Below, one piece after another: positions 8,155 through 59,338 of a stretch of DNA of 64,000 nucleotides (position 1 is the first letter of the stretch; each line of letters opens with the position of its first letter). The notes below the pieces were generated by a model. The model was not told the origin of the DNA. It saw only the letters and a list, made by a program, of their open reading frames with translations, and ran no database searches. The position numbers were made by a program, and so were the translations under genes. The DNA is from an uncultured virus (IMG/VR IMGVR_UViG_3300011114_001057) (taxonomy: Duplodnaviria > Heunggongvirae > Uroviricota > Caudoviricetes), in the IMG/VR virus record IMGVR_UViG_3300011114_001057; one strand, written 5' to 3'.

Positions 8155-8183
8155 ATTATACTTGATTAAGAGGTAAAAGTTTT
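8155..8183 (-). promoter_or_regulatory. Early/middle-type promoter AAAACT-N15-AGTATAAT
   Basis: Perfect consensus match. Confidence 0.65.
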
Positions 8184-9530
8184 ACTTAACGCCTTTTTTA
8201 GCTCTAAAAGATCACTTTTATACATATCGATGGGTTCTATTTTTTTAATATCTGTGAGCTCAAGTTGCCTATTTTCTACTTGAGAAAGCAATTCTTGGAA
8301 CTTCTCAAAAGTAAGAGTATGAATTGGCATATTTAACAGATATGAGTATGAGTCATCAACTTCATCAAAATCAGCAGTCTTAAGATATAGTAAAATTTGA
8401 CTTTTAGGAACATTGTTTACCAGTAGCTCTTCATCTATTATTGCTTTAATGAAACGTGCTCGGTTTGAAAGAAATAATAGTTCTGATTCAAGCCTATTGA
8501 TAATATATCTTTTTCTCTTTAAATAGTAAGTAAGCCTAAAATCTACAAAATATTCTATTATCTCTTTAGCTGATGTAAAGATCTTAAGTTTGCCGTTTTC
8601 ATCCAAGACAGTGAAGTTTTCAGTCTGTCTCTCCTCCATTTTAATGAGTCTTTCTAGCTTAGCTGAGTCTTTTATAGTCTTTAAATCCTCTCTTCTAAAC
8701 TTTAAAGTATAGTCGATATTAGATTTACAGTTATTTTCGTATGCTGCAATATTACGCTTATCTTCTATGTTAATTAGGTGCTGATCGAATTTTTCATAGG
8801 TAACAGATGGAGGAAGTTCTAAGATTCTAACGGTTGATGTGTTTTTTATCTCATATTTACCTCTAAACGTCCAAGAAAGGTGTGATTCTGGATTTTGGAT
8901 ACACTCTCCATTAAACTCTAAATACCATGGTGTAGGGTCCTGAAAAGTGCAACCATTAAGTTTTTTTAGGCAAGCATCAACAAGTGTTAATGGATTGCGG
9001 TTTAATATATTTGTAGCAAAACCTACTGCAATTCCACTACCACCATTTAGGAGAACAGTAGGTATTATTGGAAGAAAGTAGTTAGGTTCTATCTCGTTGC
9101 CTTCTTCGTATCTTGACTCAAGTAGTTCAAAATCTTTATATAGCAGTCTAAAGTTTTGGTGTAATTTTGTTGAAATATATCTAGGTGCACCTGCCTCAGG
9201 TGACCTTAATGAACCAAATTGACCTATTGAATCTAGTACAGGCATTGAGTTTTTAAACTTTTGTGCCATTGTCACTATTGCGCCGTTTAGGGAGCCATCA
9301 CCATGATGATAATGGGCATCTGAGGCAACTTTTCCAGCTAATTGAAATATCTTCAATGGTTTTTCTGAGCCGTTCCTCCAGACCTTATTTGCAACGAAAA
9401 TTATCTTACGTTGAGTAGGTTTAAATCCGTCTATTACAGAAGGTATAGCTCTTTCTTCAACTACATACTTAGCGTAGTCTCTATAGTCGCTATCTAAATA
9501 GTCAGTAACTGTCTTTACTTCTGGCCGCAT
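8166..9530 (-). CDS. gp52: Type II DNA topoisomerase, GyrA/ParC-like subunit (gp52)
   Basis: RAIPSVIDGFKPTQRK, YHHGDGSL, AGAPRYI (catalytic Tyr) and NGGSGIAVGFAT. Confidence 0.93.
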   Translation of the reverse strand: MRPEVKTVTDYLDSDYRDYAKYVVEERAIPSVIDGFKPTQRKIIFVANKVWRNGSEKPLKIFQLAGKVASDAHYHHGDGSLNGAIVTMAQKFKNSMPVLDSIGQFGSLRSPEAGAPRYISTKLHQNFRLLYKDFELLESRYEEGNEIEPNYFLPIIPTVLLNGGSGIAVGFATNILNRNPLTLVDACLKKLNGCTFQDPTPWYLEFNGECIQNPESHLSWTFRGKYEIKNTSTVRILELPPSVTYEKFDQHLINIEDKRNIAAYENNCKSNIDYTLKFRREDLKTIKDSAKLERLIKMEERQTENFTVLDENGKLKIFTSAKEIIEYFVDFRLTYYLKRKRYIINRLESELLFLSNRARFIKAIIDEELLVNNVPKSQILLYLKTADFDEVDDSYSYLLNMPIHTLTFEKFQELLSQVENRQLELTDIKKIEPIDMYKSDLLELKKALSKTFTS

Positions 9531-9574
9531 TTAAAATAATTTTTTATAGGTTGTGTTATAAGATAATAATATAC

Positions 9575-9691
9575 TCATTTATCTTTTTTAAAATATTTAA
9601 TTGAATCTACTAAAAGTGCAACACTTAAGACTGTTAATACAAGCCAGAGAGCTAATATGACTGTTGCTGCAATAAATTTAATAACTAGCAT
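9575..9691 (-). CDS. Small single-TM protein (38 aa)
   Basis: MLVIKFIAATVILALWLVLTVLSVALLVDSIKYFKKDK; promoter-like motif at 9731-9759 upstream. Confidence 0.45.
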   Translation of the reverse strand: MLVIKFIAATVILALWLVLTVLSVALLVDSIKYFKKDK

Positions 9692-9744
9692 ATTCCTTGT
9701 AATTTTTAAAAATCGTTTTTACTTTTTTTACTAGTACTCTTGGG

Positions 9745-9855
9745 TTACAAAAAAGTTCTAATTAATAGGTAAGAAGAGCCAATTATACTTAAGATAATTA
9801 CTAACCAAATAAATATAAACTTTGGTGCACGCTGATGTTCGTTATAATACTTCAT
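9745..9855 (-). CDS. Small single-TM protein (36 aa)
   Basis: MKYYNEHQRAPKFIFIWLVIILSIIGSSYLLIRTFL; start overlaps the end of the topoisomerase large subunit. Confidence 0.4.
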   Translation of the reverse strand: MKYYNEHQRAPKFIFIWLVIILSIIGSSYLLIRTFL

Positions 9856-11680
9856 TTGTAGCTAATATTCGTTCTTTTCTAGGTTTAGAATCACCGCCAA
9901 ACCATGCTTCTAGTGACTCTTTATACAATTTATCGTTCTTAAGTTGAATTAAATAGGGATTTTTTATGATTTCTTCATATTCGTCGTCTTCTAAGGCAGC
10001 AAGTCCTTTTTTATACTCTATCTCCCAAGAATTAAGATTGTTTTTAGTACACCACTTATCAAATTCATGATTTGTGTAAAAATTTATCTTCTTATTTGCT
10101 TTTTTAGCAACTACTAATGGAGTCATTACTTTGTAGATGCGGCCTTGGTCAAATAGTTCGGGCCAGTACCTATCAAAGAAGTTAATTAATAGAGAAGCGA
10201 TTGAATTTCCATCAGGATCAGCATCAGTGTAGATATAGACTCGACCATACCTTAAATTTCTAGGTTCTTCGCCTAATTTAAGTCCTAGGGAAGCCATTAG
10301 CTGAATAGCTTCATCGTTTTTTATTATTTCAGAGCTTTTCATCTCGCTTACGTTGATAAATTTACCTTTTAGTGGAAATGCACCGACTGTTTGTGTGTCA
10401 CGAAACTTACGAACCGCAGATAGCGCAGACAAGCCTTCATATATTCCTAAAACACATACACCGCGATCACCTTTACGTTGTGCATCGATTAACTTGGGAA
10501 TTTTAGTCTTATCCAGGTCTTTATTTAGCTTTCTAAGTTCTGCTCTCTCTTGAGCAAGTGCTTTTTTCTCGATCCAGTCTAATACAGATTCAATTATCTC
10601 TGACTTAAAGACTAGTTTTGCAATTTTATCAGTCACATCATGTCGTGTACCAAAATCTTTGATCTCAGTAATCAGCTTTTCCTTGGTTTGTGAGCTAAAA
10701 AATGAATTTACGACAGTTGAATCGATAAAAACGTATATATGATTTCTGATATCACTAGGCTTTACGTCAACTCTATGCTTCTTCTTAATCATTTCTCTTA
10801 GCTGTGCAATGAGCTGATTAGTGATGTATTCAACGTGTGTTCCACCGTCTTTAGTATGTACTGAATTAACAAAACTTACGTTTTGAAAGCCGTTTTCAGA
10901 CTTTGCAAAACATATCTTCCAATCTCGAGTCTCTTCAAAGAAATATTCTTGCGTGTATAGCTTAACATAATCTTCAAATGTCTTAAAATGATAGGTTTCT
11001 CCATTAAAAGTTATTGATAATTTAGGATTGGTTGCAGCAATGTCTATTGCTCTTTTTTGTAGGGCGCTTACTGTTGAATCATCGATTCTTTCCATACCAA
11101 ATCTCTTTAAATCTGGAAAAAACGTGATTCGAGTAAAGCCTCTTTTTGCAGGTTTAATAGTTGGCTTGCCTGCTTTTTTCATATTATCCGAATATTCTTG
11201 ATAATATGATTTTTTTCCATCACATGTCTCAATTATGAATTGAGTTGAAAAAATATTTGTTAAGGTTGCACCTACTCCATGAAGACCAGCACTAGTTCTG
11301 TTCTCAAAATCATTAAAATTTGAACCCGCTCGAAGATTTGAAAATATCATCTGTGGAATCCATTCCTTATGTTCTTTATGCTGTACTACTGGGATACCTC
11401 CATTATCAAAAATTAAAATCTTTCCAGTCGATTGATTTATTTGAACTTCAATCTTATTTAATTTTGGATTACGTTTATGCTCATCTGCTGAATTTGATAT
11501 AATCTCATCAAATATCTTGATAAATGCTGGTGAAACACATAGCTCTTCATGTTGAAATTTACCTTCTGACAAGATGGTAAAATTTTCAGTCTGTTGAGAG
11601 GTGGTTCCAATCCACATACCTGGACGAAGTAAACAATGTTCTATATCAGTTAGCTTTTGATATTTTTGTTCTATTTTCAT
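9842..11680 (-). CDS. gp39: Type II DNA topoisomerase ATPase/TOPRIM subunit (unsplit gp39+gp60)
   Basis: EHCLLRPGMWIG, FDEIISNSADE, GLHGVGA, EGLSA, PLKGK, TDADPDG and YKKGL motifs. Confidence 0.93.
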   Translation of the reverse strand: MKIEQKYQKLTDIEHCLLRPGMWIGTTSQQTENFTILSEGKFQHEELCVSPAFIKIFDEIISNSADEHKRNPKLNKIEVQINQSTGKILIFDNGGIPVVQHKEHKEWIPQMIFSNLRAGSNFNDFENRTSAGLHGVGATLTNIFSTQFIIETCDGKKSYYQEYSDNMKKAGKPTIKPAKRGFTRITFFPDLKRFGMERIDDSTVSALQKRAIDIAATNPKLSITFNGETYHFKTFEDYVKLYTQEYFFEETRDWKICFAKSENGFQNVSFVNSVHTKDGGTHVEYITNQLIAQLREMIKKKHRVDVKPSDIRNHIYVFIDSTVVNSFFSSQTKEKLITEIKDFGTRHDVTDKIAKLVFKSEIIESVLDWIEKKALAQERAELRKLNKDLDKTKIPKLIDAQRKGDRGVCVLGIYEGLSALSAVRKFRDTQTVGAFPLKGKFINVSEMKSSEIIKNDEAIQLMASLGLKLGEEPRNLRYGRVYIYTDADPDGNSIASLLINFFDRYWPELFDQGRIYKVMTPLVVAKKANKKINFYTNHEFDKWCTKNNLNSWEIEYKKGLAALEDDEYEEIIKNPYLIQLKNDKLYKESLEAWFGGDSKPRKERILATNEVL

Positions 11681-12876: not shown

Positions 12877-14472
12877 TCATTTTATTTCTTTGTTTAATTT
12901 TTTTATTTTTAGCGCATCTAAAAAGTATTGAGGCACACTGTTATTTTCAAGTATCTGATCAAAACATTCGTCTAGGATATAAGTCTCTGCCCAATCATCG
13001 TCATTTCTTATTGATCTACCATAAGCTTGAAGAAGATCTACTAGGGACTTCCAATTATACCATTCTTTACGAGTCTCAAGTCTTTTTTTAATCTTAGTAC
13101 TAAGTAAATTAGGAAAAGGTACTTTTAATATTACTTGAAACCGGGAAAGATCGTCTTTTAGATCTATTCCATTAATCATAGAAGGTGAAACTAGAACGGT
13201 TGAATTTTGGGACATTAGATGTTTTTCTAGAGAGGCTTCCCTAGTTGAAGAATCATGAAAGATCAATCGTGAATCTTTAATTGAAGACTTTATCCAATTA
13301 CTAAACTCATAGTTTGAAGTATGAATTATACCCTTTACTTCATGATTTTTTTCAAGAATTTTGCCTAGGATAGGAACGGCTCTACTAAAGGTATCTTTCT
13401 TATTATAGTATGACATCTTACCAAATTTTAGGTAGATGATCGGTCGTTTTTCAGCATCGAATGGACAAGGTAAAGACAAGTAGCTCATCTGTTCTTCGTC
13501 TACTCCCATAATAAAGGAGAAAAGTTTCTGATCAAGAATGGTGCCTGACATCATAATCACATGATCGTATTCTCTCCAGAATAGGTCATTAAGGTAAATG
13601 TTTCCCCAAATAGGTTCTACTAAGATCCTAATTTTACCAAACTGGTCTAGGTCCTTTTCAAAAATCCAATTGCTTTTGTAATTTTCCTTGTCTTTAACAA
13701 ATCTATTAAACTTACAGAGAGTCTTATCGACATGATCGGCTTTACGTAAGAGCTCTACTTTTTTCTTTTTGGTTCGCGCTTCTTTTGACTCACCTATGAG
13801 TTCTTCGAATTTTTGATCTAGTAGAGTAATTATTACTGAACTTGTATATTCAGATAGTGCAGTAAGTGATGAGATCTCGGAAAGATCCTTTTCCATCCAA
13901 TCTCTCCATATATCTAGTGCTTTTATAGATCTTTCAGAATATACAGATGAGATAAAGTCACAAAAAGTATCCTCAAAAGAGTGAGACTCGTCTATAATTA
14001 GAAGCTTTGATTTTCTCTCAATTAACATATCTGGAGAATACATTGAATATGCAGTTATTAGGTGAAAATTAGTAAGACTTAACGGACTACGTAAAAACTT
14101 AGATTGTGCTAATTTATATGGGCACGGATGACAGTTAGTTCCACCTGCTGTGTTTAAAACTGCTGCTTCTCCACAGTTCATGTTTTGTCTTCTACAGAAA
14201 TAATTAGTCTTGCCCTTTAGATTTGCCATAAACGGAAAATCTTTAATATACTGCTCTTGTAAAAGCTTAGAATTAGTTAATATATCAACCTTTGCCTTTT
14301 TTGAAAAACTACTACGATACCATTCAGCTATCATAACTGATGCGTATGACTTACCTACACCAGTTGGTGCCTCAATCATGATGAATTTTTTACCTAAGTT
14401 TATTGAGCTCTTAACAAACTCTAACATCTCAGTCTGTTGAGGTCTTGGTGAAAAATTAAGGTCTATTTCCAT
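12877..14472 (-). CDS. DinG/XPD-family SF2 helicase with a Cys cluster (probable Fe-S)
   Basis: PRPQQ Q-motif, EAPTGVGKS, KGKTNYFC..C..C.PCPY, IIDESH, MSGT, GIDLKDD and QAYGRSIR. Confidence 0.85.
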   Translation of the reverse strand: MEIDLNFSPRPQQTEMLEFVKSSINLGKKFIMIEAPTGVGKSYASVMIAEWYRSSFSKKAKVDILTNSKLLQEQYIKDFPFMANLKGKTNYFCRRQNMNCGEAAVLNTAGGTNCHPCPYKLAQSKFLRSPLSLTNFHLITAYSMYSPDMLIERKSKLLIIDESHSFEDTFCDFISSVYSERSIKALDIWRDWMEKDLSEISSLTALSEYTSSVIITLLDQKFEELIGESKEARTKKKKVELLRKADHVDKTLCKFNRFVKDKENYKSNWIFEKDLDQFGKIRILVEPIWGNIYLNDLFWREYDHVIMMSGTILDQKLFSFIMGVDEEQMSYLSLPCPFDAEKRPIIYLKFGKMSYYNKKDTFSRAVPILGKILEKNHEVKGIIHTSNYEFSNWIKSSIKDSRLIFHDSSTREASLEKHLMSQNSTVLVSPSMINGIDLKDDLSRFQVILKVPFPNLLSTKIKKRLETRKEWYNWKSLVDLLQAYGRSIRNDDDWAETYILDECFDQILENNSVPQYFLDALKIKKLNKEIK

Positions 14473-14561: not shown

Positions 14562-15374
14562 TTATAAAACTAAGACAGTTGCTTCTGGTTTTAATTGACT
14601 CTGGTGATACCAGATAGTTCTGCCAGTACCGTCTACTTGTTTTTGAGACTTTCCATAGCATTGAATCCAACCCTCAAAACTAAATCTAGGTATCTTAAAT
14701 GGGCTCTCCCAGTCTTTTAACTGACCTCCACCTAATTGGTAGGCTTCTAATGGGATTCTTTTACATAATTCAGTAATCAATGGATTACTAGATAGGGCCT
14801 TCCTGGCTTCCTCAAATGGATCTTGAGAGGCACGATATAGTATCTCTGCCCTAAGATAATTACCTATCCCGTTAAAAAACCTTTGATCTAATAATAACTC
14901 ACAGATTGGTTTTGAAAAGACCGAACGACTGATGTTGTTATTGATGTTTTCAAGAAAACTTTCGTGTTCCTCGACTGGACATGGGCCACGACTCTGTGAC
15001 CAGTCCTTAACGACCTTCCATTTAGCAAAACGGCGAACGTCTACTAGACATAATGAGTCGAGCGCGACTGATCTAAAGATCATATGTACGTGATTAGGCA
15101 TTGCTTCGCCATTTTTGACATACACCCAGTGACCTGACATTCCCATTGAGCAGCTTATTTTCATAAATATCTCTTGGCCTTGAATGATTGATAGCATAAG
15201 CTCCTTACCTTTTGCATCGGCTTGGATACTAAATATCTGTAAATCACTAGGCATAGTTATCCCAAGTCCTCTATCCCAAGCACTCTCAGAAAATAAAAAA
15301 CTAGTAAAATTATTGGTTTCACAGACATCGTTTATATAGTCTGACATGATTCTTATTTCGGCTAATTCTGGCAT
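14562..15374 (-). CDS. nei: Fpg/Nei DNA glycosylase, NEIL1-like (no zinc finger)
   Basis: N-terminal MPE, KGKEL, GMSG, DVRRF and H2TH LLDQRFFNGIGNYLRAEILY; C-terminal GRTIWY without CxxC. Confidence 0.88.
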   Translation of the reverse strand: MPELAEIRIMSDYINDVCETNNFTSFLFSESAWDRGLGITMPSDLQIFSIQADAKGKELMLSIIQGQEIFMKISCSMGMSGHWVYVKNGEAMPNHVHMIFRSVALDSLCLVDVRRFAKWKVVKDWSQSRGPCPVEEHESFLENINNNISRSVFSKPICELLLDQRFFNGIGNYLRAEILYRASQDPFEEARKALSSNPLITELCKRIPLEAYQLGGGQLKDWESPFKIPRFSFEGWIQCYGKSQKQVDGTGRTIWYHQSQLKPEATVLVL

Positions 15375-19086: not shown

Positions 19087-19506
19087 TTAAATTCCCAAGT
19101 GGATGACATCAATATTTGCCTCCCTTAATATTTTTACACCAGAAATGTCTCTGTATTCTTCCTTGTATATGACTCTTTTTATTCCTGATTGAATTATCAG
19201 TTTTGAACAGTCTTTACATGGAGAATAAGTTACATATAAGGTTGAACCTTCTGTATTTTGAGTTGATTTTGCTACCTTTAACATAGCATTAGCCTCAGCA
19301 TGTAAAACATACCAATTAGTGTTACCGTTAGCGTCTTCACAGTCGTTTGCAAAGCCTTTAGGTGTCCCATTAAAGCCATCTGAAATTATAGTACCATCCT
19401 TGACGATAAGTGCACCTACTTTCTTGCGTTTACAGCAAGACAGAGTAGACCACACAGTTGCCATTTCAAGGTATGTCAAGTGATATTTTAGATCCTTTTG
19501 ATTCAT
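19087..19506 (-). CDS. dCMP deaminase
   Basis: KKVGALIVK, GFNGTP, HAEANA and SPCKDC Zn motifs. Confidence 0.92.
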   Translation of the reverse strand: MNQKDLKYHLTYLEMATVWSTLSCCKRKKVGALIVKDGTIISDGFNGTPKGFANDCEDANGNTNWYVLHAEANAMLKVAKSTQNTEGSTLYVTYSPCKDCSKLIIQSGIKRVIYKEEYRDISGVKILREANIDVIHLGI

Positions 19507-19696
19507 TCTTTTTGTTTAATGGTTTATTAAGTAAAGGCCCAACTATAATTAAATTAAGTATTAATTGAATAGCTAACCATTGTATATATGTTATATCCAC
19601 TTTGAATATAGTATTCAAACCAGTCCAAATGTATACATACGTACAGAGTAGTGCAGTTATAAAGAAAGCAGCAACCTTTGTGATAAATTGTCTCAT
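19466..19696 (-). CDS. Small two-TM membrane protein
   Basis: Two hydrophobic segments; ATGA overlap with the upstream gene. Confidence 0.5.
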   Translation of the reverse strand: MRQFITKVAAFFITALLCTYVYIWTGLNTIFKVDITYIQWLAIQLILNLIIVGPLLNKPLNKKNESKGSKISLDIP

Positions 19697-20583
19697 GAGT
19701 TTAAGTTATAGTTTAAGTTATTTTTTATCCAGTTCATTAGTTCATCTCCCATTCTTTCAGAAACATCATTTTGAGTAGAGAATAGCCTATTAAATAATGG
19801 AGATGGCTTTCCTTGAACAGAAATCAATTCTTCTCTTACTTTAGGAATGTTTAATGGAGCAAATGGTTCTCTTATCATTCTTTCTACGAGGCCAAAGTGT
19901 CTCTGATATAAGTGAAAAGAGTTTGCAATGTGAGTATAGGTACCTAGTTCTAAATCCTTAAAGTCTTCTCCGCCATGTAGTACTAGATGAAACAGCATTT
20001 GAGATTGTAGGGTAGCAAAGAATGCAATATCTGTAGGAAGACCTAAAATAACGTCATTACTTCTCATACTTACTGTAAAATTCAATTTATTGTTACGTAT
20101 TTGAAATATTCCATACATTGTACAAACAAAGTCCTTGTTTCCTTCACGTTGATGAGTGGGTAAATTAAAATGTAGAACTGCTTGGCGGCTATCTTTATCC
20201 TTTTTTAAGGATTCAAATGCCCAGTTATATTGAGTAAACTGATGTTCGTTAGTATTTGTAAAGAGCAGGTGACCATATGAAGAGTTTACTGTCCCGTCTT
20301 CATTTTGGATGGATTCCCAAAACTTAGCAAACTTTGCAATATATTCAACATCGTTTCTTCCCATAAAGTACCAAAGAAGTTCAGCTGCAATATATTTCCA
20401 TTGAGAAGAACGAACTGAATTTTGATAAAGACAAGAAAGAGGATTGGTGATGACTAGAGCAACATCACAATTTTCTTTGATTTTCATATCCCTAGGTTGA
20501 GTAAAATACTCAGGGCACATTAGTAGATCAGAAAGACTCTCCTTGTAGGCACCAGCAAATGTTTCAGATTTGTATGTTAACAT
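19693..20583 (-). CDS. Thymidylate synthase-superfamily enzyme, dCMP hydroxymethylase (gp42)-like
   Basis: AELLWY, DSRQAV, DFVCT (catalytic Cys), MRSNDVILGLPTD (Asp at the Asn177 position) and GTYTHIANSFHLY. Confidence 0.8.
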   Translation of the reverse strand: MLTYKSETFAGAYKESLSDLLMCPEYFTQPRDMKIKENCDVALVITNPLSCLYQNSVRSSQWKYIAAELLWYFMGRNDVEYIAKFAKFWESIQNEDGTVNSSYGHLLFTNTNEHQFTQYNWAFESLKKDKDSRQAVLHFNLPTHQREGNKDFVCTMYGIFQIRNNKLNFTVSMRSNDVILGLPTDIAFFATLQSQMLFHLVLHGGEDFKDLELGTYTHIANSFHLYQRHFGLVERMIREPFAPLNIPKVREELISVQGKPSPLFNRLFSTQNDVSERMGDELMNWIKNNLNYNLNS

Positions 20584-28716: not shown

Positions 28717-30144
28717 TTATTTTTTTAAATTTTTAATGTTTTTTATCTCACCTTGAGTTTTTATTCGCTCGTTGTACAACTTAGTTAATATAGATCGAGC
28801 AACAGAATCAGTTTTTCCGCTGAATGCTGTGTTATTTTTAGTGTGTATATCTTTTTCATCAAGTTTTATTTCGTCTAACTTTCCAATATATGTATCTGGA
28901 GATATATTGAACTGTATCTGTATGTTAGGATACATTGATGAAAAATCGTAACATGCAATTGCACCATAATACCCTGGAACAGGGTCCTTTACGTATGCAC
29001 CCTCATATGTAGCATTAACGTCATTTGTTTCTCCCCAAGGAAGCTTCATCATTTTTAAGTTCTTGTTTAGGAACTCTCGACACATAAGGACCTCAGCTAT
29101 GTAAACTGGACTAAATACTTTGTTGATTTCTACTTGTGCAACATTTGCCATTGAAAAAGCAACGTCTAAAATAGAGAGCTTGTCCTCTATCAACTTAACT
29201 AAGATAACGTCGATTACATTGTACATAGTAAACAAATAAACATCTTTTTGAAATTCTATAAAGGAGTCATACTTATGTTTAAGTTTAGCAGTTCCTAAAA
29301 CTAGTCCTGAAATATAATCTAGTTTATAGTTTTCAATTACTTTGTAAGGTTTAAGTTTTTCAAAGACTTGCATGTAATCTAAAACACCTAGGTGAGTAGG
29401 AACCTTTACTTTTGAAAAAGTAGTTTTAGTTGGCATGTTTTGTACTGGATCAATATTGATATTTTTTGCTCTATTCATCAAATATTTCCAGTCAAATTCA
29501 GTAACATTCCAGCCTGTAACAAAAGAAAGGTGAGGCATTACTTTGTGAAAAAAGAATTCCATCAGCTCTTTTTCAGTAGTAAAAAACTTATATTTGATTT
29601 TGAAGTCTTGTTCAAATAGACTAGCATCTTCAGGTTTAAGAGGTACTGTCTTTTTAAAATATTCATTAACTTCTTTTTCCATTCTATCTATTTGACTTTG
29701 CTCTAATCCATCAGGTTGATCTTCAGCAGTTAACATAGATAGTATATAAGTTACATTGTCTTCATTACAAAAAGATATTAGCCCGACTGGCATTTTAGCT
29801 TTTTCTGGTTCTGGAAAGGAGTCATCTATCAACTTAATCTCAATATCAAGATAGGTCTTCTTAGGATAGTTATCAAAATTATAAATGAGCTCAGTTTCTT
29901 CAGGTGTAAACTTTTCTTTGATTAGCTCCTGTATTCTAAATTGATTGACCCACTGCCCTTGCGTTGAGCTCTTCTTTATGTACTTGCCATTCCAATTTCT
30001 AGTAGTAGTTGGCGAAGTTGATTCTACCCAATTAAATACTTCATGGTCAACTAACCGCTTTTTAATAAAATCGATCTTTCCTTTATCATTATAATAAGAG
30101 ATCATTAATTGGTTGTCGTGAGTTACTTCAGAACCTACTATCAT
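28717..30144 (-). CDS. gp43A: Family-B DNA polymerase, N-terminal subunit (3'-5' exonuclease plus motif A); split polymerase
   Basis: YLDIEI, GWNVTEFDWKYL, YNVIDV, YEGAYVKDP and YDFSSMYPNI; ends in the fingers without motifs B and C. Confidence 0.85.
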   Translation of the reverse strand: MIVGSEVTHDNQLMISYYNDKGKIDFIKKRLVDHEVFNWVESTSPTTTRNWNGKYIKKSSTQGQWVNQFRIQELIKEKFTPEETELIYNFDNYPKKTYLDIEIKLIDDSFPEPEKAKMPVGLISFCNEDNVTYILSMLTAEDQPDGLEQSQIDRMEKEVNEYFKKTVPLKPEDASLFEQDFKIKYKFFTTEKELMEFFFHKVMPHLSFVTGWNVTEFDWKYLMNRAKNINIDPVQNMPTKTTFSKVKVPTHLGVLDYMQVFEKLKPYKVIENYKLDYISGLVLGTAKLKHKYDSFIEFQKDVYLFTMYNVIDVILVKLIEDKLSILDVAFSMANVAQVEINKVFSPVYIAEVLMCREFLNKNLKMMKLPWGETNDVNATYEGAYVKDPVPGYYGAIACYDFSSMYPNIQIQFNISPDTYIGKLDEIKLDEKDIHTKNNTAFSGKTDSVARSILTKLYNERIKTQGEIKNIKNLKK

Positions 30145-39838: not shown

Positions 39839-41644
39839 TTAACCGTCGCAAGATAAACAGTCAATGGTAGCACGAGCAGCAATGTCTCCTCTAAGTACTG
39901 ATTCTGTTCTCATGTAATATAAGGTCTTAACTCCTAAGTTATATGCTTCAAGATGAACTTGATTGATAAATTTAGGCTCAGCTTCAGTTGGAAAAGCCAA
40001 GTTTAAGGAAACTGCTTGATCAATATATTGCTGTCTGATTCCGGCTTGTCTTACTAATTCAAGTTGATTGATCTCCTTAAAGGTAAGATATACATTTTTA
40101 AGTTGAATATAATTATCTTGTTCAATAGGAGCAAGTTTTGCTCGTTTAGAAGAAGTTATTGGATTTGATGTTTCTCCAAGTTTAACCCAATAGTTATCTA
40201 AGAAGTCTAGTCCTTGAACAGAGCCCCCGTCTTGTAATATCTGATTCCAAGTATCATCAGTATTATATCCAAGTTTTTCTAAAACCTTTTCTAAAGTAGG
40301 GTTTTTACGAATAAAAGTTCCTTTAGCAGTCTGCTCGGTAAAAACGTTTGCTGCCCAAGGCTCAATGCCAGCAGAAACATTACCTGCAAGCTTTGAATTG
40401 GAAACAGTTGGTGCAATTGCTCGTAAATGAGTGTTCCTCATTCCTGTACCAGCGCACCATAACGGCTCTCCTAATTCTCTTGCCATATCTCTAGAAGCCT
40501 GTTCACTCTCAATTTTTAATTGCGAAAATATCTTTCTTGTCTCAAACTGAGCTGATAATGAGTCAAATGGGATATTTTTGTTTTGTAGATATGTATGCCA
40601 TCCCAAAACTCCTAAACCTAATGCTCTACCTTTTTGAGCAGATCTGACTGCATTATCAAATCCTCTCATGTATTTTGCTCTTTGAATAAACTCATCAAGG
40701 ACTCCATCTAGAAACCAAGTAGCTGTGTAAATAAGGTCAGAATCTTTCCACTCCTCATATCTTGCAAGGTTTAGGGAGGAAAGACAGCAGACGAATGAGT
40801 GATTTTCATCAGTATGTAGGGTGATTTCGCTGCAGATATTTGTCATGTATACTTTAAGTCCATTCTTCTTGTATGCTTCTGGGTTCTGTCGGTTTATATT
40901 ACCTTTATACATGATATAAGGTTCTCCAGTAGACTTTCTTTTCTTAAGGACTGCAGTCCAGCGTCGTCGGGCTTCTTTGTCACCTTGATCCAATCTATTC
41001 ATGAAATCGTCAGAAACTACGACACATTGGTGAAGGCTTAAACACTGACGATTCATGTCTCCTCTAGGCTCTCTGATCTCTAGCCAGTCCCAAAAGTCTC
41101 CATGTTCAATATCAATATTAACTGATGCAGCTCCTCTTCTGACTGAGCCTTGGTTTGTAGCAAGAACAGCCGAATCATATATCTTGCAGAATGGAACTAC
41201 TCCATCTGATGTTCCATTTTGTGAAATTACTGTACCTGCAGGTCTGATTTGATTTACTCCTATTCCTACTCCTCCGCCGTGTTTAGCAAGAAGCATCATT
41301 TCTAGATTTTTACTACCTATATCTACTATTGAGTCAGCAACGTCTATTCCAAAACATGAAATAGGTAGACCCCGTTCAGTGCCAGTGTTTGAGAAAACGG
41401 GTGTTGCTAAGTTTAACCAACCTTTCCACATATAATCAAAAAACTTTGAAGCTAATTCTGGTTTTTTAAGTCGCTTAGCTACAGTAGTAGCAACTCGCCA
41501 ATAAGCGTCCTTTGGAGTCTCACCTTCAAGTAAATATCCTCTAGAAACGGTTTTGACGTAAACTTCAGTATTTGCCCAAACTGGGAAGTGTACACCTATT
41601 TCCCATCCTAAATGTTCTCCTTGATTAATCTCTGTGTCTTCCAT
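39839..41644 (-). CDS. nrdA: Class I ribonucleotide reductase alpha subunit (no ATP cone)
   Basis: LPISCF, GGGVG, QGSVRRGA, TNICSEI, VCCLSSLN, AIAPTVS, KTLYY and C-terminal CLSCDG. Confidence 0.95.
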   Translation of the reverse strand: MEDTEINQGEHLGWEIGVHFPVWANTEVYVKTVSRGYLLEGETPKDAYWRVATTVAKRLKKPELASKFFDYMWKGWLNLATPVFSNTGTERGLPISCFGIDVADSIVDIGSKNLEMMLLAKHGGGVGIGVNQIRPAGTVISQNGTSDGVVPFCKIYDSAVLATNQGSVRRGAASVNIDIEHGDFWDWLEIREPRGDMNRQCLSLHQCVVVSDDFMNRLDQGDKEARRRWTAVLKKRKSTGEPYIMYKGNINRQNPEAYKKNGLKVYMTNICSEITLHTDENHSFVCCLSSLNLARYEEWKDSDLIYTATWFLDGVLDEFIQRAKYMRGFDNAVRSAQKGRALGLGVLGWHTYLQNKNIPFDSLSAQFETRKIFSQLKIESEQASRDMARELGEPLWCAGTGMRNTHLRAIAPTVSNSKLAGNVSAGIEPWAANVFTEQTAKGTFIRKNPTLEKVLEKLGYNTDDTWNQILQDGGSVQGLDFLDNYWVKLGETSNPITSSKRAKLAPIEQDNYIQLKNVYLTFKEINQLELVRQAGIRQQYIDQAVSLNLAFPTEAEPKFINQVHLEAYNLGVKTLYYMRTESVLRGDIAARATIDCLSCDG

Positions 41645-41665
41645 TTTATTTTCTTTAATTTGATT

Positions 41666-42673
41666 TTAACTAAATAATGAGTCCTCGTCCCAGTTTTCGT
41701 TTTCTCCTGCTTTTGCATAATCAGTGGATCTAATTGCAAAGAAATCAGTATGGGTATGTCCGCCAGTAAGATGATAAAACCAGTCTAAGCTAGAGGCTGC
41801 TGCCTCATCATAATCAAATATTGATTCATATCCTAATTCTACTAGTTTTTCATTTGCTCTCTTCTTGATAAACTCTTTTAAATCATTTGCTGTAAGATTC
41901 TCAAGGTCTCCCATTTCGAACATTTTATCAATAAATTTAAGTTCCATTTCTACTATTAAAGCAGCTGCTTCTTCTACTTGAACTCTAACACTACTTCCTA
42001 ATTCTGGAAAATCTTCGCACATATGTCTAAAGAGTTGGCAACCCATCTTTGAGTGTAAAGATTCATCTCTAACTGACCATTTCATCTGTTGACCTACACC
42101 TTTAAGTAAGTTTCTCATTTGAAAAGAATAAAGAACTGCAAATGATGAATATAGTGATACTCCCTCAGCAAATGCTGAAAATATAGCTAGTGATCGCGCA
42201 ACGTCCTTACGTGCCTCAGTTGAAGTTGCAAGATCATCATGAGTGTAATCATTAGTTGTTTTTACTAGGAATTCAAATTTTTCAGCAATAGTAGGCTCAT
42301 GTAAGAAAGCTTTAAAGTCTTCAAGGCCGAGAGTCTCATTAAGATATGAGTATGCAGTTGCATGGATTGTTTCTTGTGAACCAAACATCATTGCCATTTG
42401 TCTTATTTCATGTTTAGGAAACCACTTGGTAACTAGACCAGTCCAGTAATCTGAGACTGCACATTCAGTTTGAGCAAAACCCAATAGAATATTCCCAACT
42501 AGGTTTTTTTCAGCTATTGTTAATTTTTCATGCCAATCTTTAACATCTCCTTGCATGGAGATCTCCGTATGTAACCAAAAAGCTTGTGCTTGTTTTAACC
42601 AGCCTTCAGTATAGTATACTGGGTATTCAAAAGGCTTATACTCAATTCTTTCTTGGAACATTTTTGATGACAT
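41666..42673 (-). CDS. nrdB: Class I ribonucleotide reductase beta subunit
   Basis: KPFEYP, FWLHTE, QETIHATAY, EGVSLYSSF, RDESLH and DFFAIRSTDY. Confidence 0.95.
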   Translation of the reverse strand: MSSKMFQERIEYKPFEYPVYYTEGWLKQAQAFWLHTEISMQGDVKDWHEKLTIAEKNLVGNILLGFAQTECAVSDYWTGLVTKWFPKHEIRQMAMMFGSQETIHATAYSYLNETLGLEDFKAFLHEPTIAEKFEFLVKTTNDYTHDDLATSTEARKDVARSLAIFSAFAEGVSLYSSFAVLYSFQMRNLLKGVGQQMKWSVRDESLHSKMGCQLFRHMCEDFPELGSSVRVQVEEAAALIVEMELKFIDKMFEMGDLENLTANDLKEFIKKRANEKLVELGYESIFDYDEAAASSLDWFYHLTGGHTHTDFFAIRSTDYAKAGENENWDEDSLFS

Positions 42674-44053: not shown

Positions 44054-46461
<2,408 letters not shown>

Positions 46462-46467
46462 TAGTTG

Positions 46468-47199
46468 TTATGCTTGATATGCATAATCTTTTACTATGGA
46501 AAGTCCAGAAAGTTTTAATAAAATATTAGTAGTAGTCATGACATCACGTTCACAATACTTGGTGATCTTTTCTATTTCACCTTTCCAAAAGTAAGAATTG
46601 ACTTCTGACCCTTGAATTTCTTCTTTTGGAGAGTCTAAGCCAATTGATGTTGCTAATAGATCAAGTGAAGTAAATCCTTCTTGCCATGCACCGAAACTCC
46701 AAACTTCAGATGTATCGATAAACGGCATCTCCCAAGGTTTAAGGTTGTGGATTAGCAGGCCTTTAGGTAAAGAATAACCATTAATTAAGAGTCTTTTACA
46801 CATCATAGGTACGTCAAATCTCTTAATGTTATGTCCGACAAACTTTAAGTTAAAGAACTTTTCAAAGACTTTGTGAATTCCTTCTAGTACTTCTATTTCC
46901 GAATCACTAGAATAGCTCTTAACTATTAAAGAGGGTCCTTCTTCTGTCCAACTGAGTCTTGCAAAAGTAGCACAGACTATTCTAGCAAATTCAGGAGTAA
47001 GTGCAGCCTTTTCTACGTATAGTTCCTCGTCGGTTAAGTATTTGTTTTCTTCAAAACGTGATCGTAAGTAATCGCATCGTTTAGACCAGAGTTCAGCTTT
47101 CTTCTTGTTTGCAAGAAGCAGCAAGTCTAGTGATTCATATTCTGCAGCAGTTTCAAGATCAAAGAATACTGCTTTTATTAGTTCGGATTGGCTATACAT
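46468..47199 (-). CDS. PolB-like stand-alone 3'-5' exonuclease
   Basis: FFDLET, GHNIKRFDVP, KPWE, DTSEVWSFG and YCERDV. Confidence 0.82.
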   Translation of the reverse strand: MYSQSELIKAVFFDLETAAEYESLDLLLLANKKKAELWSKRCDYLRSRFEENKYLTDEELYVEKAALTPEFARIVCATFARLSWTEEGPSLIVKSYSSDSEIEVLEGIHKVFEKFFNLKFVGHNIKRFDVPMMCKRLLINGYSLPKGLLIHNLKPWEMPFIDTSEVWSFGAWQEGFTSLDLLATSIGLDSPKEEIQGSEVNSYFWKGEIEKITKYCERDVMTTTNILLKLSGLSIVKDYAYQA

Positions 47200-47206
47200 A
47201 TTATTT

Positions 47207-48169
47207 TTATACTAGATTTAGATTTTCAGTTTCCTCAAAAGAAAATGGAATAGGTGCATCAAGCAGCTCAGTGCTTTCTCGATAGCGAAGAATGGATAGA
47301 TCTTTAGCTTTGGCTTCGATTTCAATATCGACAGTTAGACCATAGCTTGGAATCTTTTCATAGATATAATCAGAATGTGAACGATTGATGACTGATGAAT
47401 CTTCATAAAGAGCCTTTGAACTTGAATAGTGCTGTAGGGGAGTAAAACCCTGCCAAGTAGAAGCGGCTAGATGAGCTGCCTCGCTTGCAGTAAGATCCCC
47501 TGTACAAAACCGGTGATGTAGGTGATCAAAAGTAACAGGACAGCCGACTACACGATAGACTCCATGATAGAGATCCTTGACTGAAAACTGTGATTCCTTA
47601 TCATCGTTTTCCACAACAAGTCTCGCTTGCGTGTGGGGGGAAAGACGAGAGAAGTTTTCGCAAAACCTAGCGAGTGCAGATTCCTTGTCACCATATGAAC
47701 CACCGATATGAATGTTGATAGGTGAACGATAATCTCTAGGCAGACCCATTAGATTCATAATATTTGAGTGCTGATCTAGATCATATATTGTCTTTTCAAC
47801 AATACTATCGGTTGGTGAAGCCAGAACATCGAATTGACCAGGATGAAAAGATATACGCATGTTGTTTTCATCTACGTATTTTCCAACCTTTGCGGCCACT
47901 GCTGCTATCTCATAAAAATCAGGTAAGTCACTGATTAAGTACTCACTCATCCAAGGAAAAAGATCAGAAGACATACGATATACCCAAATATCGTTTTGTT
48001 TATTCCACTCTAGTATCTTTAATAGATCACGCAGGTTGGCTAAGGCAAGTTGACTTGCGTAGGCAATTCCTTTTTCTTGCCAAGTTTTTTTTATCATTCC
48101 TCGATTGGTTGTTATTCCCTCGTCCTTGAGAGAAAGATTAATACAGCAATATCCTAGTCGTACACTCAT
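47207..48169 (-). CDS. uvsE: UV-damage endonuclease (UvsE/UVDE)
   Basis: RLGYCCIN, YRMSSDLFP, RISFHPGQF, LVVENDD, FDHLHH, HSDY and IEAKAK. Confidence 0.92.
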   Translation of the reverse strand: MSVRLGYCCINLSLKDEGITTNRGMIKKTWQEKGIAYASQLALANLRDLLKILEWNKQNDIWVYRMSSDLFPWMSEYLISDLPDFYEIAAVAAKVGKYVDENNMRISFHPGQFDVLASPTDSIVEKTIYDLDQHSNIMNLMGLPRDYRSPINIHIGGSYGDKESALARFCENFSRLSPHTQARLVVENDDKESQFSVKDLYHGVYRVVGCPVTFDHLHHRFCTGDLTASEAAHLAASTWQGFTPLQHYSSSKALYEDSSVINRSHSDYIYEKIPSYGLTVDIEIEAKAKDLSILRYRESTELLDAPIPFSFEETENLNLV

Positions 48170-52500: not shown

Positions 52501-52593
52501 AAAAATATAATAAGGGTTCTAGATAAAACCAATTATATGATTAATACTGAAACTAGGCTAAATCTTAGGAAAAACAAGTTAATAAATAACTAG
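49543..52593 (+). CDS. Large structural protein, probable baseplate wedge component
   Basis: IYPYIGTYKGLINFVNILGY..KVKEYW baseplate-like motif; Ig/PKD-like C-terminus (GTYTLSVDV); late promoter. Confidence 0.55.
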   Translation: MNVQNLQFFDKLGNNLNLEFDSDLSAWVGTIYFTQVSISVFDNQNLFLLEKVGNNYKFPTITANSFFKFSWEEDVNKTELFLYDVVEDITLNENFISTIQYKTISHSDFNTNSNLPLDYRFPMQVNIAFNPSNEQVYERTLLIHYNSTLIAKIGFYGEGEDEEERFNVWLQNFGIKFLREDANILKDYDIKEANPNLESLNQIRKELLVNREEIYPYIGTYKGLINFVNILGYKDVLKVKEYWQNVNTNSSYFNTLNLVDITDYLDDGKIDTLDLVDANSSIIAGRQFKKTEFLALVYEFTRETGEYDDDGIPLTEETTSFTVNEVFYKLNALNKKLKNEFLPINVKIKDIIGEFLYFQKITINYWTDSTIIYDYSLNESVEVLMYPDIKSSNLLIRDLSPLYRKKLASGIDFGVVRLNDSSQDPYENSQRWTRDQIPGISDYIKSFYTEIRDQRYPDLNSRLSWEYGDDPEKKIGAPIVLSLGLAKFTVFDLRGVKLSDLSSTYAGVDPYWTFENIDYRNFYEINWKITKNAPNPYNFEYRGKVVDLHTLPHFLPTNGEYRITIELYDFCGNISVFSKLIMVSEKLTPEIVGFTRLEDKFDYRISNLSNIQLQDFGSNPLYFPRVNVLDFEEISTHVNIYKNLLDWNSFYKNRYGMGQNLYDVDIYDEDTDSYVAYTDPLQSNPNKRYWGLGEGDIPIKIKDLRDMQLKSLYWMRLSDLVYLEDFNAGFIISKPAPGKIIKFSLFSEYTIPNYSTLTELAQILTDSDHPGVRLFDYTAVKTTIHASAKYLSREMYHILFSPGAGSPGLSPSPSAGSPGKLNAGLDNYTFFLPKKVHSTRTIDFLKSISPVFDIETLFLLAKTSDVLNGNVQDPQFWVEEKYWKFENDLQKGHLPTAIDQNAFNLTSIKIFKDSFVLPENGIVFFVINNIDGKNEFIWTLRDEPNNKTIIKVRSVPFFVWKFKDIGTYTLSVDVIDSNKTIYKNSVKNIIRVLDKTNYMINTETRLNLRKNKLINN

Positions 52594-52603
52594 ATTAAAA
52601 TTT

Positions 52604-52612
52604 AATAAATAA
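52604..52612 (+). promoter_or_regulatory. Late promoter box AATAAATAA
   Basis: Intergenic, upstream of 52632. Confidence 0.5.
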
Positions 52613-52631
52613 CTAAAAATAATAAAAAACA

Positions 52632-53597: not shown

Positions 53598-53616
53598 TAA
53601 AAAATTTTTAAAATAA

Positions 53617-55719: not shown

Positions 55720-55725
55720 AAACAG

Positions 55726-59319: not shown

Positions 59320-59338
59320 AATACTTTTATAGAATAAT

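Follow-up and report, generated by a model that had tools for sequence, protein, structure and literature searches.

A gene on the minus strand of the window (the whole 64,000-nucleotide stretch of DNA analysed here) is predicted to encode a working bifunctional NEIL1-type glycosylase/AP lyase, made up of the catalytic core only, that would clear oxidised bases from phage DNA and belongs to a sister clan of eukaryotic NEIL1. We put the probability of this reading at roughly 80%. The gene (14562..15374) was assigned as a NEIL1-type (zincless-finger) Fpg/Nei DNA glycosylase/AP lyase of 270 aa from its ORF, phmmer, AF2/Foldseek and dN/dS. The protein belongs to a large and mainly phage-borne family, the closest one to eukaryotic NEIL1.

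Sequence and fold of the glycosylase

The 270-aa ORF is intact and begins with MPELAEIR. It carries RGPC, KPICELLLDQRFFNGIGNYLRAEILYR, PFEEAR, ELCKRIPLEAYQLGG, WIQCYG and GRTIWY, the last followed by 14 residues, so that every motif listed in the initial annotation is present; the human NEIL1 motifs given there were also seen in the alignment to PDB human NEIL1 chains. The same annotation had described a protein with no zinc finger, and a Cys4 finger is indeed impossible since the final 40 residues contain a single Cys. The gene is under purifying selection, with dN/dS of 0.11, 0.10 and 0.08 against three relatives, and tblastn found no second glycosylase copy within the window. Its GC content (0.389, compared with 0.334 for the window) was not telling as a signal of recent acquisition, and a promoter/terminator scan around the gene was uninformative, with five promoter-like sites against a shuffle mean of 5.0.

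We compared the window protein with the Fpg/Nei subfamilies using phmmer. Human NEIL1 matched at E=1.7e-49 (172 bits), well outside what chance would give, followed by Lactococcus lactis Fpg (3.6e-7), mimivirus Nei1 (3a45; 4.9e-7) and E. coli Nei (4e-3), with NEIL2 (9e-3) and NEIL3 (0.23) lower down. The NCBIfam models for bacterial Fpg both failed (TIGR00577, 68.4 bits against a cut-off of 203.3; NF002211, 61.7 against 212), as did the bacterial Nei model NF007763 (44.1 bits against 252). Against a mammalian NEIL1, several phage proteins scored 164–186 bits, choanoflagellate NEIL1 161–171 and amoebozoan NEIL1 132–137, and the phage enzyme resembles mammalian NEIL1 to roughly the same degree as choanoflagellate NEIL1 does. 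The E-values, the NCBIfam failures and these bit scores agree with the earlier proposal that NEIL1 is far nearer to this protein than bacterial Fpg/Nei are. The window protein is of the NEIL1 type in the broad sense, closer to it in sequence and fold than to the other Fpg/Nei subfamilies.

The domain architecture follows that of NEIL1. An N-terminal beta-sandwich catalytic domain (residues 1–119; 15018..15374, minus strand), assigned by alignment and by Pfam Fapy_DNA_glyco (34.1 bits, passing the cut-off of 25.5), holds Pro2, Glu3, Lys57, Met79, Arg114 and Phe116, which align with human P2, E3, K54, M81, R118 and F120. Across 40 relatives at 32–50% identity, M1, P2, E3, K57 and M79 were invariant, and R114 and F116 were at least 90% conserved. 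We take human Met81, Arg118 and Phe120 to be the void-filling residues of NEIL1, and by alignment the window protein keeps them as M79, R114 and F116. A helix-two-turn-helix motif (H2TH), residues 143–193 (14796..14948, minus strand), includes DQRFFNGIGNYLRAEILYR and was placed from Pfam, the human NEIL1 alignment and the model. Its Pfam H2TH score lies under the cut-off (E=4.2e-7, 30.3 bits against 34.7); residues 155–181 match the H2TH stretch of human NEIL1 almost exactly, and the AF2 model has helices at 137–196 that cover the motif. The H2TH motif is present and is predicted to bind DNA.

The zincless finger (residues 233–256; 14607..14678, minus strand), placed from Pfam, alignment and model, is a beta-hairpin with Tyr240, Arg252 and Trp255. 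These three residues align with human Y263, R277 and W280 and are invariant in the 40 relatives, and the finger strands occupy 244–247 and 253–256 in the model. Pfam Neil1-DNA_bind (PF09292) matched residues 233–256 at E=1.9e-4 and 21.6 bits, under its cut-off of 25; many relatives carry a precomputed Neil1-DNA_bind domain. We counted the retained equivalents of P2, E3, K54, M81, R118, F120, Y263, R277 and W280 in favour of a working NEIL1-type enzyme. The AlphaFold (AF2) model reached a pLDDT of 92.3 and a pTM of 0.89, and a Foldseek search of the PDB returned, among the matches listed (30 rows), human NEIL1 throughout (E=3e-26 to 3e-21, TM 0.74–0.85).

Eukaryotic NEIL1 structures (1TDH, 5ITT, 5ITX, the 6LW* series and 8FTJ) share ~36–39% identity with the phage protein over the entire catalytic core. 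They also share its fold (TM 0.81–0.85, full chains), N-terminal Pro-Glu, catalytic Lys, Met/Arg/Phe wedge, near-identical H2TH stretch and zincless finger with conserved Arg and Trp. The phage protein departs from them in its lesion-recognition loop, its sister-clan placement and its encoding by a phage, and it lacks both the ~20-residue insert after human residue 199 and the ~100-residue disordered C-terminal tail of human NEIL1, a tail that binds replication proteins. Eukaryote-clade rows in our trees were mostly 350–790 aa long, with basic tails. In the lesion-recognition loop, where the alignment is uncertain, the phage consensus GGGQLKDW stands opposite human GGK/RGYGSE, placing Gly217 at human K/R242 and Lys220 at human Tyr244. 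As this loop is unlike that of human NEIL1, the substrate range may differ.

Other Fpg/Nei enzymes are more remote. Mimivirus Nei1 (MvNei1; 3A42, 3A45, 3A46, 3VK7, 4NRW) and the giant-virus Fpg-like proteins are likewise virus-encoded, but MvNei1 matches the window protein (~32 bits) no better than bacterial Fpg does, and giant-virus Fpg models in BFVD share 15–20% identity with it. A published phylogeny describes MvNei1 as having a zincless finger and places it outside metazoan NEIL1 (PMC3188539). Bacterial Fpg (MutM) and Nei (endonuclease VIII) share the superfamily, the N-terminal Pro-Glu chemistry and the H2TH motif, but have the Cys4 zinc finger that is absent from the window protein, which also scores far under their NCBIfam cut-offs. 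Two further members of the superfamily encoded by cultured phages, the Fpg of Bacillus phage Nachito and gp292 of Bacillus phage G, show 21–25% identity; unlike the window protein, Nachito Fpg falls with the canonical Fpg outgroup.

Family spread and relation to eukaryotic NEIL1

Relatives of the window protein are abundant: they form 1801 protein clusters, and the 53 loci found in IMG/VR represent three or more different phage contexts. Data banks already label such proteins 'endonuclease VIII-like 1' or 'Nei Formamidopyrimidine-DNA glycosylase [uncultured Caudovirales phage]'; the window protein is therefore one more member of a labelled family and no first sighting. Among 50,697 cultured or deposited phage records, tblastn found no close relative and five weak matches at 25–27% identity. 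A full-text search, with subscription journals outside its coverage, returned no article describing a phage enzyme of the NEIL1 type and one mention of a Pithovirus Fpg transcript.

The idea of a phage-only family was ruled out by chromosomal copies in Candidatus Poribacteria and Neomarinimicrobiota MAGs. These genes have the same short build (259–281 aa), the MPE start and a place in the same non-eukaryote clan, but lie in cellular neighbourhoods (sulfatases, RlmL, PhoH, UbiE, rhodopsin) and not in the phage module. In the tree they group as a subclade of their own (97/95), surrounded by rows from phages and metagenomes. A genome scan gave 11 full-length matches at 34–42% identity, counting two phage-like contigs; 13 archaeal matches were left out, the H2TH stretch alone having matched. 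Bacterial spread is patchy, with strong matches in 5 of the 151 genomes sampled from the phylum of the Poribacteria/Neomarinimicrobiota entry. In five bacterial MAGs the NEIL1-like gene was the sole PF01149 match, so that an enzyme of this type can cover Fpg/Nei-class repair in general. The MAG matches L059 and L060 look like mis-binned phage contigs; in L060 the glycosylase gene is flanked by UvdE and a PolB-exo2-type exonuclease.

We then placed the family in a careful tree built under a mixture model with 10 canonical Fpg/Nei outgroup rows (NEIL2, NEIL3, MvNei1 and plant/fungal Fpg left out). The NEIL1 superclade separated from the 10 canonical rows at 100/99, so the window protein does not group inside bacterial Nei/Fpg, the outcome that would have spoken against its NEIL1 affinity. 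A eukaryote clan spanning mammals, choanoflagellates, amoebozoans and a euglenid was recovered at 98/84, with the window protein outside it. All phage, metagenome and bacterial forms, the window protein included, made up a non-eukaryote clan at 96/64, the SH-aLRT being only 64; it appeared in 95% of 200 bootstrap trees. Composition heterogeneity was flagged in nine rows of the tree. The short 'MG' rows are mostly unlabelled metagenome proteins. Tool-given names cover 11 eukaryote-labelled rows across the trees; the careful tree contains 16 eukaryote-labelled rows, of which 10 are named in this way. The remaining eukaryote labels come from clade, length and tails.

A rival arrangement would have eukaryotic NEIL1 arise inside the phage radiation, by transfer from a phage to an early eukaryote, leaving the phage forms paraphyletic. 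FastTree and a quick free IQ-TREE run did put the eukaryote clan among the short forms, several phage proteins score as high against mammalian NEIL1 as choanoflagellate proteins and above amoebozoan ones, and deep branches with short stems are numerous in the phage clan. Against this, the mixture-model tree with its 10 outgroups keeps the non-eukaryotes as one clan in 95% of bootstraps, a tree holding the non-eukaryote forms together stands 44 lnL above the quick free tree (p-AU 0.88), and a distant outgroup easily attracts fast-evolving viral rows. The AU test and then the careful tree led us to drop the nested topology, and we consider such an origin unlikely, at about the odds of a one-in-five guess. 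The initial annotation had suggested that jumbo phages may be the source or a sister group of metazoan NEIL1. The sister relationship is supported, with the whole of eukaryotic NEIL1 as the partner and not a metazoan group alone; the phage-donor part is not supported, the nesting being lost in better trees. The trees support the phage-rich clan, which includes chromosomal genes of a few bacteria, as the sister group of eukaryotic NEIL1.

Genome neighbourhood and proposed function

Phage markers in the window comprise a gp23 capsid protein, an S77 prohead protease, UvsX, DnaB, a split PolB and RNR; no tRNA genes were found in it. The capsid relatives are huge uncultured phages, and the record of a syntenic relative measures 176 kb at 70% estimated completeness. 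The glycosylase gene is part of a module for replication and repair in a large, T4-like phage of the gp23 type, for which 'jumbo' status is plausible. Directly downstream on the same strand lies a conserved neighbour, a DinG/XPD-type helicase (12877..14472, minus strand; Pfam Helicase_C_2 and ResIII, phrog_2488 DNA helicase at 3.8e-96, weak NCBIfam YoaA/DinG matches). In 20 of the 21 loci of the window lineage this helicase gene comes after that of the glycosylase; the 21st locus stops 244 bases past the glycosylase gene. Type II topoisomerase subunits (8166..11680, minus strand; Pfam DNA_topoisoIV, DNA_gyraseB and Toprim) belong to the same leftward replication cluster and are syntenic in related loci, and the synteny of glycosylase, helicase and topoisomerase II holds in 20/21 lineage loci down to 51% identity. 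A second repair block (45700..48169, minus strand) consists of a UvdE UV-damage endonuclease (47207–48169; Pfam UvdE 3.7e-54, TIGR00629 195.6 bits, over the cut-off) and two nucleases, a PolB-exo2-type 3'-5' exonuclease (46468–47199; Pfam DNA_pol_B_exo2) and a PD-(D/E)XK nuclease (45700–46461; Pfam PDDEXK_1).

We infer the chemistry, substrates and replication link of the phage enzyme, the mechanism by homology with the solved human NEIL1. After removal of Met1 by the host, the free amine of Pro2 would attack C1' of a flipped-out oxidised base, assisted by Glu3 and Lys57, with Met79, Arg114 and Phe116 filling the gap in the helix; the phosphate backbone would be held by the H2TH motif together with the zincless-finger residue Arg252. 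The Schiff base would be resolved by beta,delta-elimination to leave a one-nucleotide gap. Candidate lesions are those of NEIL1, namely thymine glycol, 5-hydroxyuracil, hydantoins and Fapy lesions. Most likely the enzyme would rid phage DNA of oxidised bases, acting when the DNA is replicated or ahead of that, with the DinG-type helicase, topoisomerase II, a 5'-3' exonuclease, UvsX and SbcCD as putative partners, and would complement UvdE, which deals with UV damage.

A more specialised role was suggested by a ThyA-family enzyme (19693..20583, minus strand) 4.3 kb from the glycosylase gene. The window also encodes a dCMP deaminase (19087..19506, minus strand; phrog_174 2.4e-52, Pfam dCMP_cyt_deam_1). 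The best PDB match of the ThyA-family protein is 1b49, T4 dCMP hydroxymethylase (gp42), at E=1.6e-21, compared with 1e-11 to 1e-13 for thymidylate synthases. Its Cys154 aligns with the catalytic C148 of gp42 and its Asp185 with gp42 D179, a position that we take to set cytosine versus uracil specificity, and it is probably a dCMP C5-modifying enzyme. The glycosylase could then be adapted to a genome whose cytosine is C5-modified. It would remove decay products, such as the 5-hydroxymethyluracil formed when 5-hydroxymethylcytosine is deaminated or forms oxidised further, and spare the normal modified base. Besides the nearby gp42-like gene and the lesion loop unlike that of human NEIL1, homologues with the same Asp occur in four of the five other glycosylase-carrying phage records, a count confined to such records; these include a complete 256-kb genome, and the fifth record is 8% complete. 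On the other side, the window ORFs scanned contained no MBD4-type partner or glucosyltransferase, the same gene type sits in ordinary chromosomal contexts of Poribacteria and Neomarinimicrobiota, and the fetched flanks of 25 of the 53 IMG/VR loci held no ThyA-like match. The nearby gp42-like enzyme lends circumstantial support to an action of the glycosylase on modified pyrimidines, and we regard full specialisation for modified cytosine as improbable. A role in degrading the host chromosome, or in cutting at abasic or altered bases left by defence deaminases or glycosylases, has general points in its favour (phages encode many enzymes that counter host defence, and DNA can be nicked by an AP lyase), but is very improbable given that the gene lies in a conserved replication/repair module and no variable island, is under strong purifying selection with the NEIL1 catalytic residues kept, and has bacterial chromosomal homologues that are the sole Fpg/Nei-type genes of their genomes.

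Implications for the origin and study of NEIL1

Among human repair enzymes, NEIL1 has been much studied. A published Fpg/Nei phylogeny shows it as a 'metazoan' clade whose stem is long and which lacks close relatives outside eukaryotes (PMC3188539), and a review proposes an origin of H2TH glycosylases from the mitochondrial symbiont (PMC8307549). A very large, conserved sister family, present in phages from the environment and in a few bacteria from the sea, and with some members at about 36–39% identity to mammalian NEIL1, alters this published picture, and the origin of NEIL1 becomes a testable question. One bold answer, which we hold to be a long shot, is that the phage clan with its few bacterial genes is the long-missing lineage of the prokaryote world that gave eukaryotes NEIL1 before amoebozoans, animals and euglenids split, and that in phages it maybe evolved alongside genomes with C5-modified cytosine. 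If true, repair genes of large phages would be the origin of an enzyme central to base excision in animals, and the phage link to C5-modified cytosine would foreshadow the reported processing of oxidised methylcytosine derivatives by NEIL1. The family also supplies compact, tail-less and readily expressed natural variants for studies of structure and specificity. For the phages themselves, the gene content suggests that large aquatic phages bring their own base-excision step for oxidative damage next to UvdE.

The glycosylase reading frame and its likeness to NEIL1

We read window 14562..15374 (-) as a 270-aa ORF that starts MPELAEIR and carries RGPC, KPICELLLDQRFFNGIGNYLRAEILYR, PFEEAR, ELCKRIPLEAYQLGG, WIQCYG and GRTIWY, so all the motifs listed in the initial annotation are present. 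The zinc finger was correctly said to be absent, because a single Cys lies within the final 40 residues and a Cys4 finger is impossible, and the human NEIL1 strings given there can be seen where HMMER aligns the protein with human NEIL1 chains of the PDB. The further claim, that the protein is far closer to NEIL1 than to bacterial Fpg/Nei, agreed with phmmer, NCBIfam and blastp scores and with a tree split (100/99). Against all PDB sequences, phmmer matched the protein to human NEIL1 at E 1.7e-49 (172 bits), followed by L. lactis Fpg (3.6e-7) and mimivirus Nei1 (4.9e-7), then more weakly by E. coli Nei (4e-3), NEIL2 (9e-3) and NEIL3 (0.23). The NCBIfam bacterial equivalogs were not reached (fpg, 68 bits vs 203; Nei, 44 vs 252). 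The N-terminal Pfam domain Fapy_DNA_glyco scored over its cut-off, H2TH and Neil1-DNA_bind scored under theirs, and the only PHROGs match was phrog_21295, a family without a name (E 2.3e-15). By blastp against mammalian NEIL1, the window protein (167 bits, 36.4% identity) equalled choanoflagellate NEIL1s (161–171 bits) and exceeded three amoebozoan NEIL1s (132–137), with canonical Fpg/Nei at 28–47.

An AlphaFold2 model, with an alignment of 40 relatives as input, reached a mean pLDDT of 92.3 and a pTM of 0.89. In a Foldseek search of the PDB, all 30 matches listed were human NEIL1 (E 3e-26 to 3e-21, 35–39% identity); the best matches among predicted viral structures, Bacillus phage G gp292 and giant-virus Fpg proteins, shared only 15–21% identity. 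HMMER aligned window P2, E3, K57, M79 and R114 with human P2, E3, K54, M81 and R118, and F116, Y240, R252 and W255 with F120, Y263, R277 and W280, human residues whose roles we take to be those of the NEIL1 structural literature. Across the 40 relatives (32–50% identity), M1, P2, E3, E6, K57, G78, M79, G81, Q164, G171, Y173, Y240, R252 and W255 are invariant, and D112, R114 and F116 are conserved in at least 90%. The model predicts a beta-hairpin (244–247 and 253–256) as the zincless finger. Human NEIL1 differs in having about 20 residues past position 199 without counterpart in the window protein, a long C-terminal tail that the window protein lacks, and a lesion-recognition loop of GGK/RGYGSE rather than GGGQLKDW. 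In comparisons with relatives at 96, 88 and 78% identity, dN/dS came to 0.11, 0.10 and 0.08, as for a live gene under purifying selection; no second copy of the gene was found in the window.

Judged by its sequence, the gene encodes the core of a predicted bifunctional glycosylase/AP lyase of NEIL1 type. By analogy with solved human NEIL1, whose key residues it shares, Pro2 would form the Schiff base with Glu3 and Lys57 assisting, the Met/Arg/Phe residues would act as the wedge, the H2TH and the finger Arg252 would sit on the DNA backbone, and the lyase chemistry would be beta,delta-elimination.

The phage carrier and the putative role of the enzyme

Among the gene products of the window are a gp23-type major capsid protein, an S77 prohead protease and a lysin, together with a DnaJ-type co-chaperone (710-1681, +; DnaJ and DnaJ_C domains), a GroEL-type chaperonin (44054-45703, -; Cpn60_TCP1, E 1.3e-69) and an AAA ATPase. 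Its replication genes comprise both topoisomerase II subunits, a DinG-type helicase, DnaB and a family-B polymerase, whose 475-aa ORF (28717-30144, -) takes in the exonuclease domain but no more than the beginning of the polymerase domain, which suggests a split gene as in some T4-like phages. UvsX/RecA, SbcCD-like proteins, a 5'-3' exonuclease and UvdE are also encoded; no tRNA was found in the window. The capsid protein is best matched by a 462-kb uncultured phage (38.6%) and Lak phages (32–35%). A syntenic relative has a contig of 176 kb at an estimated 70% completeness, and the genome of another glycosylase-carrying phage is complete (256 kb, with terminal repeats), so the window phage may reasonably be regarded as large and plausibly jumbo. 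Very large ORFs lie in series at 49543-64000 (+) (1016, 321, 700, 1197 and >1553 aa). Pfam assigns none of them to a family at E <= 1e-5, and three have 32–43% matches adjoining the NEIL1-like gene of another locus (L051); the likeliest products are structural or tail-fibre proteins.

The glycosylase most likely clears phage DNA of its oxidised bases around replication, a role that fits its fixed place beside the DinG-type helicase and topoisomerase II. It also fits a second repair block elsewhere in the window (45700-48169, -), in which the UvdE UV-damage endonuclease, a PolB-exo2-type 3'-5' exonuclease and a PD-(D/E)XK nuclease lie in series. On one phage-like contig (L060, 5077-7492), a NEIL1-like gene stands directly between UvdE and a PolB-exo2-type exonuclease.

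Alternatively, the enzyme might be tuned to decay products of C5-modified cytosine. The ThyA-family gene at 19693-20583 (-), called thymidylate synthase by family scans, is closest to T4 dCMP hydroxymethylase, gp42 (E 1.6e-21), then to CMP hydroxymethylase, and matches thymidylate synthases only at 1e-11 to 1e-13. The catalytic Cys is kept, and Asp185 stands opposite gp42 Asp179, a position that decides between cytosine and uracil. Since this gp42-like enzyme carries the Asp and a dCMP deaminase gene adjoins it (19087-19506, -), the phage DNA may be built with C5-modified cytosine. Four of the five other glycosylase-carrying phage records (the fifth is only 8% complete) encode a homologue that keeps this Asp; bacterial chromosomal copies of the NEIL1-like gene argue instead for a general repair role.

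Relatives in viruses, bacteria and archaea

When 5.8 billion proteins were searched, 2047 candidates came up, and 1801 clusters among them scored E <= 1e-5. The top 120 of these 1801 were 189–297 aa long and 48–99% identical, and many bore the JGI name 'endonuclease VIII-like 1'; an NCBI cluster member on a 249-kb contig is named 'Nei Formamidopyrimidine-DNA glycosylase [uncultured Caudovirales phage]'. The family is thus one labelled in data banks before now; in full-text literature outside subscription journals, no description of a phage enzyme of NEIL1 type came to light. Among 50%-identity representatives, searched exhaustively, the number of clusters was 152 at E <= 1e-30 and rose to 414 at <= 1e-10 and to 1387 at <= 1e-3. 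Look-alike clusters in the ESM Atlas had a viral share of 63–100%, mainly Uroviricota.

Of the 60 candidate stretches in IMG/VR, 53 code for a relative, and their contexts are of three kinds (21 + 25 + 7). The window gene order is common to 21 loci, with the helicase after the glycosylase in 20; the remaining locus stops 244 bases past the glycosylase gene. A second lineage (25 loci, L026-L050) has glycosylase, PolB, RNR small subunit and RNR large subunit in order. The window also encodes both RNR subunits (39839-42673, -), which are 76–80% (small) and 70–75% (large) identical to those of this lineage, apart from one exceptional locus (30 and 39%). PolB identity is only 32–33% and NEIL1-like identity only 40–46%, and this disparity hints that RNR genes were exchanged between phage lineages or with a shared host. 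The remaining seven loci lie in other contexts. The neighbours sampled in the other contexts are phage genes, namely those for a sigma factor, NTP pyrophosphohydrolase, split PolB, major head protein, maturation protease, portal and tRNA nucleotidyltransferase.

One scan of 185,579 species genomes, for which [ND]QxxFNG[IV]GN was the sole pattern, gave 86 stretches, 24 of which hold a relative. Eleven of these relatives are full-length (34–42% identity): seven on Candidatus Poribacteria contigs and one each from an unnamed bacterium, Neomarinimicrobiota, a Flavobacteriaceae MAG and a Saprospirales MAG. The Poribacteria genes occupy two conserved cellular neighbourhoods, one with sulfatases, RlmL, L,D-transpeptidase and an oxidoreductase, the other with PhoH, SAM hydroxide adenosyltransferase, CorC and a PD-(D/E)XK nuclease; one Poribacteria MAG has NEIL1-like copies of both kinds. 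In five bacterial MAGs the NEIL1-like genes are the sole PF01149 (Fapy_DNA_glyco) matches. The distribution in bacteria is patchy: among the 151 genomes of the phylum that were sampled, 5 gave strong matches (E about 1e-87 to 1e-91) and 12 gave weak matches alone, to proteins of ~290 aa that look like canonical Fpg/Nei. The Neomarinimicrobiota gene adjoins UbiE, an outer-membrane protein and rhodopsin. With UvdE, a 5'-3' exonuclease and an S77 protease aboard, the Saprospirales contig looks like mis-binned phage, as the Flavobacteriaceae contig probably is too. The other 13 relatives are archaeal (L070-L082, Thermoplasmata and other MAG contigs) and matched over the H2TH stretch alone (residues about 103-217, 31–63% identity). 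A passage of one review describes Archaea as without H2TH glycosylases (PMC8307549).

Relationship to eukaryotic NEIL1

Longer representatives of the family (350–790 aa, with basic tails) include mammalian NEIL1 (E 7e-184 to human chains), the amoebozoans Mastigella, Endostelium and Planoprotostelium, the euglenid Ploeotia, a Craspedida choanoflagellate and the choanoflagellate Mylnosiga, the animals Sycon (sponge), Porites (coral) and Branchiostoma, and an MMETSP transcript. NEIL1 is therefore not confined to animals. Several of the records named here are transcriptome assemblies, in which some contamination is possible.

FastTree (146 rows, three outgroups) placed the eukaryote clade among the short forms with weak support, and a quick IQ-TREE run (LG+C20 PMSF, 93 rows) recovered a bacterial clan and a eukaryote clan, the latter starred, and did not resolve the backbone. 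In an AU test, a tree in which the 60 non-eukaryote rows were all kept as one group beat the quick free tree by 44 log-likelihood units (p-AU 0.88). For a careful tree (67 rows x 263 columns), seven canonical Fpg/Nei outgroups were added, making ten. The window protein fell outside these ten, within a NEIL1 superclade separated from them at 100/99, and grouped with relatives from loci L006, L011 and L021 at 100/98. The 16 eukaryote rows formed one clan (98/84), in which animals (100/98), two choanoflagellates (99/96) and two amoebozoans (97/94) group by kind, as fits vertical descent. The 41 phage, metagenome and bacterial rows formed another (96/64, in 95% of 200 bootstrap trees), with the five bacterial rows as a subclade (97/95); here the SH-aLRT is 64, nine rows drew composition warnings, the outgroup is distant, NEIL2/3, MvNei1 and plant and fungal Fpg are left out, and many metagenome rows are unlabelled. 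Of the proposal that jumbo phages could be a sister group of metazoan NEIL1, the sister relation is supported for the eukaryotic NEIL1 clan; the partner is not metazoan alone, as it includes amoebozoans, a euglenid and choanoflagellates.

In a published Fpg/Nei phylogeny, NEIL1 is a metazoan clade on a long stem with MvNei1 outside (PMC3188539), and the review on H2TH glycosylases proposes that these have a mitochondrial origin (PMC8307549). At the level of the family, the point is a sister clan of eukaryotic NEIL1 that is made mostly of phage genes.
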